This document shows positions 28,013-31,733 of a DNA stretch of 64,000 bases, in pieces. The position numbers and the translations under genes were made by a program. Position 1 is the stretch's first letter. Every line of letters starts with the position of its first letter. The notes under the pieces were generated by a model. The model was given only the letters and a program-made list of their open reading frames with translations, made no database searches and was not told where the DNA came from. Source of the DNA: a phage; assembly GCA_004257845.1 (NCBI GenBank), contig GCA_004257845.1_4800.1. One strand, 5' to 3'.

Positions 28013-28657
28013 ATGATTAATGCAAACGTAATATCTAAAGGGACCGGATGCAGCATGGATGTTGCTGAAAAATGGGTCGACCCCTTCAAGCAGGCTTGTG
28101 AGCACTACGGAATCAAAAGCAAGAATGCCATCGCGGCGCTGCTTGCAAACGTAGGAGTGGAAACAGGCAGCCTGAAGACCTTTGTGGAAAACCTGAATTA
28201 TTCCGCTCAAGGTCTTGCTAATACGTGGCCTAGCCGTTACAGCGCCAGCGGTCGTTTCGGTGGCGCACCAAACTCCTTGGCATTGTCGATTGCCCGTAAA
28301 CCAATGGAAATCGCCAATAATACATATGCAAACCGAATGGGAAATGGTTCGGTAGCATCTGGCGACGGTTGGAAGTACCGTGGCCGTGGTGCCATTCAGC
28401 TGACTGGAAAGGCTAACTATGCAGAGTATTCAAAGCAATCAGGGTATGACGCATTGAATAACCCTGACATTTTGACTGAGCCGAAATACATCGCTGACAG
28501 CGCGGCGTGGTTCTTCAAGAACAGCGGTTGCATTCCACTTGCCGATGCGGGTGCATTTGATTCGACCGTGAAGCGGATTAACGGGGCCGCGCCGAATACG
28601 GCTAACCATGGGGATTTGCGACGGAAGCGTTACAAGGATGCACTAGCAGTTATGTAA
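28013..28657 (+). CDS. endolysin, glycoside hydrolase family 19 (chitinase-like)
   Basis: GH19 motifs AALLANVGVETG and YRGRGAIQLTGKANY. Confidence 0.7.
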   Translation: MINANVISKGTGCSMDVAEKWVDPFKQACEHYGIKSKNAIAALLANVGVETGSLKTFVENLNYSAQGLANTWPSRYSASGRFGGAPNSLALSIARKPMEIANNTYANRMGNGSVASGDGWKYRGRGAIQLTGKANYAEYSKQSGYDALNNPDILTEPKYIADSAAWFFKNSGCIPLADAGAFDSTVKRINGAAPNTANHGDLRRKRYKDALAVM

Positions 28658-28660
28658 GAA

Positions 28661-28680
28661 AAAGGCCCATATGGGCCTTT
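28661..28680. terminator. bidirectional intrinsic terminator
   Basis: Perfect 20-bp palindrome AAAGGCCCATATGGGCCTTT flanked by A-run and T-run, between convergent genes. Confidence 0.6.
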
Positions 28681-28682
28681 GT

Positions 28683-28913
28683 TTATTTTACGGCTTCAAC
28701 CTGGACGGGCGGCGCGGAACTTGTATCAATGTCTGGCAAGTCGAAGTAATACCCCGCCATGCCAATCACGCCAACAATCGCGGCCCGTGCCACCTTGTTG
28801 CTAATTGACTCCCCAATAAGCTTTACCAACAGGGACAAGATTTGAGACGTCAAAGCCTTTTTCAGCCTTTTGTTTTCTTCCAAATCTTTCTGCATAACTA
28901 CCACCCATGTCAA
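28683..28913 (-). CDS. small membrane protein (76 aa; holin candidate)
   Basis: Single hydrophobic segment AAIVGVIGMAGYYF; ATGA overlap with upstream gene. Confidence 0.4.
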   Translation of the reverse strand: MTWVVVMQKDLEENKRLKKALTSQILSLLVKLIGESISNKVARAAIVGVIGMAGYYFDLPDIDTSSAPPVQVEAVK

Positions 28914-29452
28914 CGCACATCCTGTGTCTTAACATTACCTGAAGCATCTCTTAAGGGCAGTGGATAGTAGGCCATTTGGTAGTCTGATACGCCTTCAACA
29001 TGATAAAACACGATTACGTCTTTGCTGTTGATGAGCATGTTAACGACATCTGATTTATCTTCTGGAGTGAGTATGAGTGCGCCGCCTGTCCTGCTGTCTA
29101 CTGCAACAGGGTATGTCTTGTCGACAAGGCCGCTGTCCAATGTATTATACCTGACAACGATTTCAGCGGCATCAACTTTTGCAATTGACATTCCGAACAC
29201 AAACGAAACGACTTGGCGACCGCGATCATTCATTACGCACATCTTTTCCTTATCAAACCTTTCCTTTATCACATCATATTTGTTCCAGCAAAATTCGAAC
29301 GATTGGCCGTTGTTAAAATATCTCGTTAACACTTTGGCATTACTATTTGGCGGCGTAAACATACTTTCAGCCGCTGCACTTTTGGTGAAGAACAAGACTG
29401 TCAGCATAGCCATGATGGTGATCAAAACAATCTTTAAAGTTTTCGATTTCAT
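28910..29452 (-). CDS. secreted/periplasmic protein (180 aa) with N-terminal signal peptide
   Basis: Signal-peptide-like MKSKTLKIVLITIMAMLTVLFFTKSAAA; own promoter TTTACT-16-TATACT and RBS AAAAGGTGA. Confidence 0.5.
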   Translation of the reverse strand: MKSKTLKIVLITIMAMLTVLFFTKSAAAESMFTPPNSNAKVLTRYFNNGQSFEFCWNKYDVIKERFDKEKMCVMNDRGRQVVSFVFGMSIAKVDAAEIVVRYNTLDSGLVDKTYPVAVDSRTGGALILTPEDKSDVVNMLINSKDVIVFYHVEGVSDYQMAYYPLPLRDASGNVKTQDVR

Positions 29453-29537
29453 TATAATTCACCTTTTGATTACGAATATTAATAGTATAGGCCGAAGGTT
29501 TTGAAAGTAAATAAGGCGAAAGGTAAATAAAAGAAAA

Positions 29538-29553
29538 GCCGGAGATTTCCGGC
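29538..29553. terminator. intrinsic terminator hairpin (functional mainly on minus strand, after ligase gene)
   Basis: GCCGGAGATTTCCGGC flanked by A-run and T-run. Confidence 0.5.
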
Positions 29554-29628
29554 TTTATGTATACACTGTATATTAAATTCTATAAAACGACGCGATAGAT
29601 TATCCGCACCAATTATTTATCTAGTGTC

Positions 29629-31217: not shown

Positions 31218-31733
31218 TTATTTTTCCTTTGATGCATTGAATTGATCGATTTTTATTTTAGCCTGATTATAAGTATCAATCAAGCTATTAACTTTCTCTT
31301 TTAATCGATTTGTTTCTGCGGCGAACTGAACAAGAAATCTGACATCCTCTTCTGATAGTCCACAGTTTCCTTCTGGGATAGAGAGGCGTCCAGTGGTCGC
31401 AGAGTCGGGCACACTCCTGAGTAACTCACGGGAGCAGCTGAGTTGCTCGCGCAACTTGACATTCCCAGACTTGTAACGAGCAATAGTGTCATCAGCAACC
31501 AGTTGCGCTTCCTGGCGACCCTTCTCATATGCCGATGCCGATTCAACCTGTAAAGTTGCAATTTGCTCTTCGAGTGCATTTATCTTGTCCTTACGCTCAT
31601 TAAGCGATGTCAGATATTGATTATCCTTGGCCAGTGATGCGTTGGTTTGCTGCAGGTCTTCAACGTATGATCCAGCGGCAAACGCGCCAACAAGGGCCAG
31701 AATCTTCAGGAGCGGTACAATTCTTTCTATCAT
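31218..31733 (-). CDS. i-spanin (Rz-like)
   Basis: N-terminal TM segment (LLKILALVGAFAAGSYV) followed by coiled-coil-rich periplasmic domain, 171 aa. Confidence 0.5.
   Translation of the reverse strand: MIERIVPLLKILALVGAFAAGSYVEDLQQTNASLAKDNQYLTSLNERKDKINALEEQIATLQVESASAYEKGRQEAQLVADDTIARYKSGNVKLREQLSCSRELLRSVPDSATTGRLSIPEGNCGLSEEDVRFLVQFAAETNRLKEKVNSLIDTYNQAKIKIDQFNASKEK
31301..31492 (-). CDS. o-spanin (Rz1-like) embedded in alternative frame of Rz
   Basis: Internal ORF fully inside the Rz-like gene: signal peptide MTLLLVTSLGMSSC with lipobox-like Cys, Pro-containing short mature part. Confidence 0.35.
   Translation of the reverse strand: MTLLLVTSLGMSSCASNSAAPVSYSGVCPTLRPLDASLSQKETVDYQKRMSDFLFSSPQKQID

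Follow-up and report, generated by a model that had tools for sequence, protein, structure and literature searches.

A conserved two-gene unit facing the endolysin gene of Wifcevirus phages: a possible inherited envelope cassette on the lysis side rather than a recently acquired moron

What does a short two-gene unit, supplied with its own promoter and set between the genes for endolysin and DNA ligase, contribute to a phage of the PB1-like group? The question is raised by the window analysed here, a stretch of 64,000 nucleotides that belongs to a Wifcevirus (PB1-like E. coli phage) and has ~99.7% identity to phage WFC. The original prediction saw in this unit a self-contained moron encoding a secreted protein and a small membrane protein, perhaps a missing holin with an accessory, perhaps a module for exclusion or receptor modification. 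The matter bears on how these phages leave their hosts. To our knowledge, a holin has been demonstrated for none of the PB1-like myophages; a holin annotation was found neither in Bas99, Mansfield, MTx and PA1 nor in any Wifcevirus, a genus reported to lyse within ~10 minutes. Pbunavirus, which is part of the same group, is among the phages most used in Pseudomonas phage therapy. The features of the locus are as follows.

31218..31733, minus strand: i-spanin Rz (phrog_1327, E 1.9e-26), two genes upstream of ligase
31301..31579: o-spanin Rz1, embedded in Rz (i-/o-spanin annotation in Mansfield and Bas99)
29535..29556, minus strand: upstream intrinsic terminator, 9-bp stem with 5 GC pairs, T-run
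29484..29511, minus strand: predicted sigma-70-like promoter TTTACT-16-TATACT, 9/12 consensus match
29460..29465, minus strand: ribosome-binding site AAGGTG of the 180-aa gene, 7 nt upstream of the ATG, kept in the alignment
28910..29452, minus strand: gene for the 180-aa exported protein, ATG start, supported as an ORF and by selection and conservation
29369..29452, minus strand: predicted signal peptide, about residues 1-28 of the 180-aa protein
28901..28906, minus strand: ribosome-binding site GGGTGG of the small gene, 5 nt upstream of the ATG at 28895
28683..28895, minus strand: 70-aa LRP-family gene (phrog_5165); an alternative TTG start at 28913 gives 76 aa
28661..28680, both strands by our reading: terminator hairpin common to the small gene and the convergent endolysin gene, 8-bp stem with 5 GC pairs
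28013..28657, plus strand: GH19-type endolysin, convergent with the unit (Pfam Glyco_hydro_19, phrog_181)

The unit occupies the minus strand between two terminator hairpins and comprises a sigma-70-like promoter, the 180-aa ORF and the small ORF, with a gap of 14 nt between the genes. The endolysin, ligase and Rz/Rz1 genes lie where they had been placed, and the endolysin has neither a signal nor a SAR sequence. Compared with Mansfield, the 180-aa gene gives a dN/dS of 0.13 and the small gene has zero amino-acid changes at a dS of 0.14, which indicates purifying selection on both; together with the conservation described below, this rules out chance ORFs. The GC content of the 180-aa gene (42.2%) deviates modestly from that of the small gene (47.9%), the window (46.1%) and the neighbouring genes (~48-50%).

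The promoter that had been read from the letters is present at 29511..29484. Matches of 9/12 to the consensus are unremarkable by themselves, since the window contains 4 of them against 7.3 expected. By a tighter definition, TTTAC-N16-18-TATAMT, the window has 4 sites where 0.14 would be expected, and four genomes (the window, Mansfield, L009 and L010), with protein identity as low as ~60%, keep the -35 and -10 hexamers around a diverged spacer. Hairpins stand at both of the positions claimed for the bracketing terminators and are independently annotated in WFC and Mansfield. The upstream hairpin, kept with its T-tract in 6/6 aligned genomes, closes the operon that runs from helicase to Rz/Rz1, MazG and ligase and forms the upstream boundary of the unit; a terminator sets the small gene off from the ligase operon in all lineages. 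The hairpin at 28661..28680 was scored by the terminator scan on the plus strand only, and we call it bidirectional on the strength of both-strand terminator annotations in Mansfield, PB1 and 14-1 and a reading of its T-run.

Transcription of one homologue has been mapped. In Pseudomonas phage 14-1, ONT-cappable-seq places gp48 alone in a transcription unit, TU021, with its own start and termination sites (Putzeys et al. 2024, PMC10914365); the identity of gp48 as a homologue of the small gene was checked. The conserved footprint of predicted promoter and terminator, and the mapping of TU021, uphold the idea of a self-contained transcription unit. Putzeys et al. themselves marked gp48 as moron-like and lower in GC content (PMC10914365).

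That the unit is a moron in the sense of a recent addition is not borne out by its distribution. The homology search that had been suggested finds both genes in 29/29 Wifcevirus records, where they are annotated as hypothetical, and places the small gene in phrog_5165. At least seven PB1-like lineages, among them Pbunavirus, Kylevirus, Myosmarvirus, Carpasinavirus and metagenomic lineages, carry the small gene as a core gene in syntenic position; it always follows DNA ligase and lies tail-to-tail with the endolysin gene across a common terminator. The order MazG, ligase, exported protein (where there is one), small protein, with endolysin and tail fibre facing it tail-to-tail, recurs across the group (PB1, 14-1, Kyle, PA1, MTx, FoX6, Carpasina, two Logan contigs and two IMG/VR contigs). 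In L009, the unit is retained despite a swapped endolysin type. Synteny is genome-wide in the PB1-like group, so that the adjacency to endolysin may reflect descent only.

The 180-aa gene is distributed more narrowly. Besides Wifcevirus it is found in Kylevirus and Myosmarvirus, and it is absent in Pbunavirus and in the metagenomic lineages L024 and L026, a variation that lies between genera only. Since the small gene is kept without the exported protein in these last three, the two proteins need not cooperate. In Carpasinavirus, the same slot holds what may be a structural counterpart of the 180-aa protein, by a weak fold match and gene position; by sequence, hhalign did not relate FoX6 gp37c to the 180-aa family, and the weak case for the counterpart comes from Foldseek, from position and from a BFVD entry inferred to be the 253-aa gene of Carpasina. 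The slot also accommodates other small genes, MTx_060 and FoX6 gp38c. No homologues were found in bacteria, prophages or defence catalogues (1.84 billion representatives; PADLOC empty).

The unit is best read as an inherited cassette on the lysis side and not as a recently acquired moron. The explanation preferred here, tentatively and with somewhat less than even confidence, is that PB1-like myophages have passed on vertically a transcriptionally autonomous, two-gene envelope cassette which belongs to the lysis side of the genome. The same observations bear on a different function, in which the unit would be moron-like in what it does, if not in its origin: transcribed early by host RNA polymerase, the 180-aa and small proteins would protect the envelope, blocking the entry of related phages or modifying an envelope or receptor pathway, and would take no part in lysis. 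The -35 element of the unit, TTTACTT, is common to three promoters clustered in the terminal-repeat region, and if this match means that the unit is expressed early, exclusion fits better than lysis. The autonomy of the unit, the flagging of gp48, the somewhat lower GC content of the 180-aa gene, the patchiness of the exported protein among lineages, the gathering of other small genes in the slot and the presence elsewhere in the genome of a canonical-looking holin candidate with two transmembrane domains (TMDs) point the same way. Against exclusion, however, stand the core, syntenic position of the small gene in every PB1-like lineage examined, the purifying selection on both genes in strictly virulent phages, the absence of homologues from bacteria, prophages and defence catalogues, and the membrane damage and endolysin assistance indicated by a homologue of the small protein. 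We regard exclusion as unlikely.

The small protein had been described as a 76-aa, single-pass membrane protein. A small hydrophobic ORF is present, but its length is more likely to be 70 aa, and the single-pass assignment is not robust. The mechanical ORF of 76 aa begins at the TTG at 28913, and the 213-nt, 70-aa version, beginning at the ATG at 28895, is used in every annotated relative; an equivalent of its ribosome-binding site, GGTG, is found in L009. Residues 10-69 match the phrog_5165 profile (E 1.9e-8), hhalign against FoX6 gp36c gives 95.9%, and by tblastn the small protein has homologues, at ~38% identity, in 289 records of Pseudomonas phages, almost all of them Pbunavirus. The aligned proteins have an invariant G-E...R...G.Y core and a common layout, in which a basic N-tail is followed by two helices, with a conserved GE[ST][IV]KD[KR]..R turn between them, and by an acidic, proline-rich C-tail that is short, variable and of low complexity. 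AlphaFold2, given two sequences as input, places the helices at residues 2-30 and 34-50 in a medium-confidence model. The charge pattern recurs in 7/7 homologues (N-tail +1 to +8, turn +1, C-tail -1 to -6), and the N-tail is strongly basic in those of PB1, Kyle and PA1.

Helix 2 is a marginal transmembrane segment on three scales. The best 19-residue window scores 1.34 by Kyte-Doolittle, +0.87 by Wimley-White octanol and +7.0 by Hessa, against Wimley-White values of -5 to -16 for bona fide TMDs scored identically, with lambda S and S21 among the comparators.

The only member of the LRP family with functional data is PA1-LRP, the product of ORF13 of Pantoea phage PA1, a Kylevirus (Tian et al. 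2024, PMC11538084). We identify it as the PA1 orthologue of the 70-aa protein, since the published primers fall exactly on L008:4535-4756 and the two proteins have 52% identity over the core. Expressed alone, PA1-LRP lowers the OD by 13-20%, causes leakage of beta-galactosidase and leaves 24.65% of cells dead, a toxicity that is slow and mild, developing over 6-24 h (PMC11538084). Fused to the endolysin it enhances killing, with an OD drop of up to 75%, compared with 61% for an unrelated TMD fused to the PA1 endolysin, and helix 2 by itself, as an endolysin fusion, has the same effect (PMC11538084). TMHMM reportedly finds zero TMDs in PA1-LRP, and a two-hybrid assay did not find an interaction between LRP and endolysin (PMC11538084). 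Through this homologue, a lysis role for the small protein has some experimental backing.

The small protein might instead be soluble. It could be a cytoplasmic, regulatory helical hairpin, either an antiholin like RIII or, given its Arg/Lys-rich tail and its place after ligase, a nucleic-acid-binding or replication-linked factor, in which case the 180-aa gene would be an unrelated passenger on the transcript. The marginal hydrophobicity, the TMHMM result, the two-helix model, the strongly basic N-tails in PB1, Kyle and PA1 and the position at the end of the block of replication genes would all suit a soluble regulator. However, PA1-LRP alone permeabilises membranes and kills a quarter of the cells, its fused helix 2 suffices, and the small gene is separated by a terminator from the ligase operon in all lineages. 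A soluble regulator seems very improbable.

For the larger protein, the predicted signal peptide agrees well with expectations for Sec export: the ORF is present, and its N-terminus reads MKSKTLK / IVLITIMAMLTVLFF / TKSAAA|E (n-, h- and c-regions, with the predicted cleavage site). It has a basic n-region, a hydrophobic core of 15 residues and an AxA-type motif that most of 10 homologues keep; the segment scores KD19 2.19 and WW -9.7, has small residues at -3 and -1 and lacks a lipobox cysteine. The mature domain of ~150 aa contains two invariant cysteines, C55 and C72, and gives a confident, beta-rich model with a weak similarity to IalB. This resemblance to IalB (PF06776, PDB 3DTD, S. meliloti RgsG) is at the level of the fold only, with 8% identity, and the IalB HMM gave no Pfam match at E<=0.1. 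A sequence search of the PDB with the family profile found no match, and Foldseek against the PDB returned only TEAD matches with TM below 0.25, which are noise. Relatives were sought both by a word-indexed search, which gave 12 clusters of phage type only, and by an exhaustive HMMER search, in which 8 of 1.84 billion representatives matched, all of phage type. By these searches, the 180-aa protein is a very narrow, phage-only family. A 404-aa repeat protein, P0017 (E 5e-4), looks like a spurious relative. For neither protein of the unit do Pfam, NCBIfam or PADLOC hold a credible family, and PHROGs offers only phrog_5165, which has no assigned function.

Is the small protein, then, the holin? 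Holins usually have a basic, highly charged C-terminus and kill abruptly. At 70 aa the small protein has the size of a holin, but its C-tail is acidic and its basic segment is N-terminal; its gene adjoins that of the endolysin, although in convergent orientation, and would be read from a sigma-70-like promoter. The small protein resembles no holin family in sequence or fold, and a published test of complementation of a holin-defective phage by LRP was not found. Neither protein of the unit appears in the lysate mass-spectrometry tables of vB_Eco4M-7 and ECML-117, which are uninformative for small or membrane proteins. Other candidates exist. A stronger one is a 71-aa protein with two strong TMDs, the Bas99_0114 homologue, which is encoded just outside the window and found genus-wide in Wifcevirus. 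Wifcevirus lacks the 3-TMD protein of phrog_1544, a possible holin of Pbunavirus, Kylevirus and Myosmarvirus. The ‘holin’ annotations of Pbunavirus disagree, pointing either to PB1 gp10 or to gp52, and neither has a Wifcevirus homologue.

In the strictest form of a lysis role, the unit would be a holin-antiholin pair resembling T4 T and RI, in which the 70-aa protein, oriented N-in/C-out, is the sole holin of Wifcevirus and the 180-aa protein binds its tail and sets the timing. The charge distribution would fit this topology, the genes are co-transcribed and closely spaced, the endolysin is without export signals, and the lack of annotated holins and of the phrog_1544 protein in Wifcevirus, like the phenotype of PA1-LRP, would be accounted for. 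However, the TMD is marginal and the toxicity of PA1-LRP is not holin-like, the C-tail would make a poor specific binding site, and in Pbunavirus the small protein has no partner and is accompanied by the 3-TMD protein. The conservation of the rival 2-TMD candidate in the genus and the reports of a very short latent period in Wifcevirus, without a hint of lysis inhibition, also argue against such a pair, and we consider it quite unlikely.

Under the preferred explanation, an inherited envelope cassette on the lysis side, transcription of the ligase operon would end at the upstream hairpin. Host RNA polymerase would restart at TTTACT/TATACT, read both genes and stop at the hairpin shared with endolysin. 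The 70-aa product would fold as the helical hairpin of the LRP family (PA1-LRP, PB1 gp49 and 14-1 gp48), with its basic N-tail and an amphipathic helix 1 on the cytoplasmic side of the inner membrane. Helix 2, which is rich in Gly and Ala and weakly hydrophobic, may insert into or across the membrane, with the acidic, proline-rich tail directed outward. As the small protein accumulates, it may perturb the membrane and allow the signal-less GH19 endolysin to reach the cell wall, thus acting as an unconventional holin or a holin auxiliary. The 180-aa protein would be exported by Sec and cut after the AAA motif, and in the periplasm it would probably be disulfide-bonded; it may be a lineage-restricted accessory, whose likeliest role is to tune the same step at the envelope, for instance by timing lysis or by protection.

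A bolder proposal, which we hold to be doubtful, is that LRP represents a new kind of inner-membrane permeabiliser that lacks a canonical TMD and is the holin or an essential holin co-factor of the whole PB1-like group, the Pbunavirus phages used in therapy among them, with the IalB-like protein as its periplasmic timing partner. As a timing partner, the exported protein would extend over Wifcevirus, Kylevirus, Myosmarvirus and, by the weak fold match, Carpasinavirus.

The comparison singles out one small protein, in a transcription unit of its own against the endolysin gene, that every lineage has kept, and next to which several lineages have added an exported partner. Should the link to lysis fail, the unit would remain a clearly delimited candidate for envelope-acting exclusion in strictly virulent phages.

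Among known systems, the unit resembles the classical morons and exclusion genes (bor and lom of lambda, imm and sp of T4, llp of T5) in being an autonomous arrangement of promoter, genes and terminator with envelope-targeted products and in the somewhat lower GC content of one gene. Unlike them, it is not variably present in close relatives, is syntenic across genera and is without bacterial or prophage homologues. With lambda S105/S107, pinholin S21-68 and T4 T/RI/RIII it has in common a small protein adjoining a cytoplasmic endolysin, with membrane permeabilisation as its proposed action; the co-encoded periplasmic protein could act similarly to RI, and the two-helix, 70-aa protein is similar in size to RIII. 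The small protein differs from these holin systems in the absence of a convincing TMD, in its acidic tail, in the slow toxicity of its homologue and in the convergent orientation to endolysin.

The nearest comparisons are within the PB1-like group itself. The Pbunavirus unit consists of the small gene only, with no exported partner, and at the place of Rz/Rz1 in Wifcevirus, Pbunavirus carries the 3-TMD protein of phrog_1544. The small proteins PB1 gp49 and 14-1 gp48 are nevertheless ~38% identical to that of the window, and their genes share the slot after ligase, the common hairpin with endolysin and, in 14-1, the monocistronic TU021. PA1-LRP differs in its N-tail, which is +4 in PA1 and much less basic, at +2, in the window protein, and it was studied as endolysin fusions rather than by expression in trans, and in a Kylevirus rather than a Wifcevirus. 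In both phages, however, the small gene occupies the same slot, between the gene for the exported protein and the convergent endolysin, and its product has the same two-helix layout and GE[ST][IV]KD[KR]..R turn.

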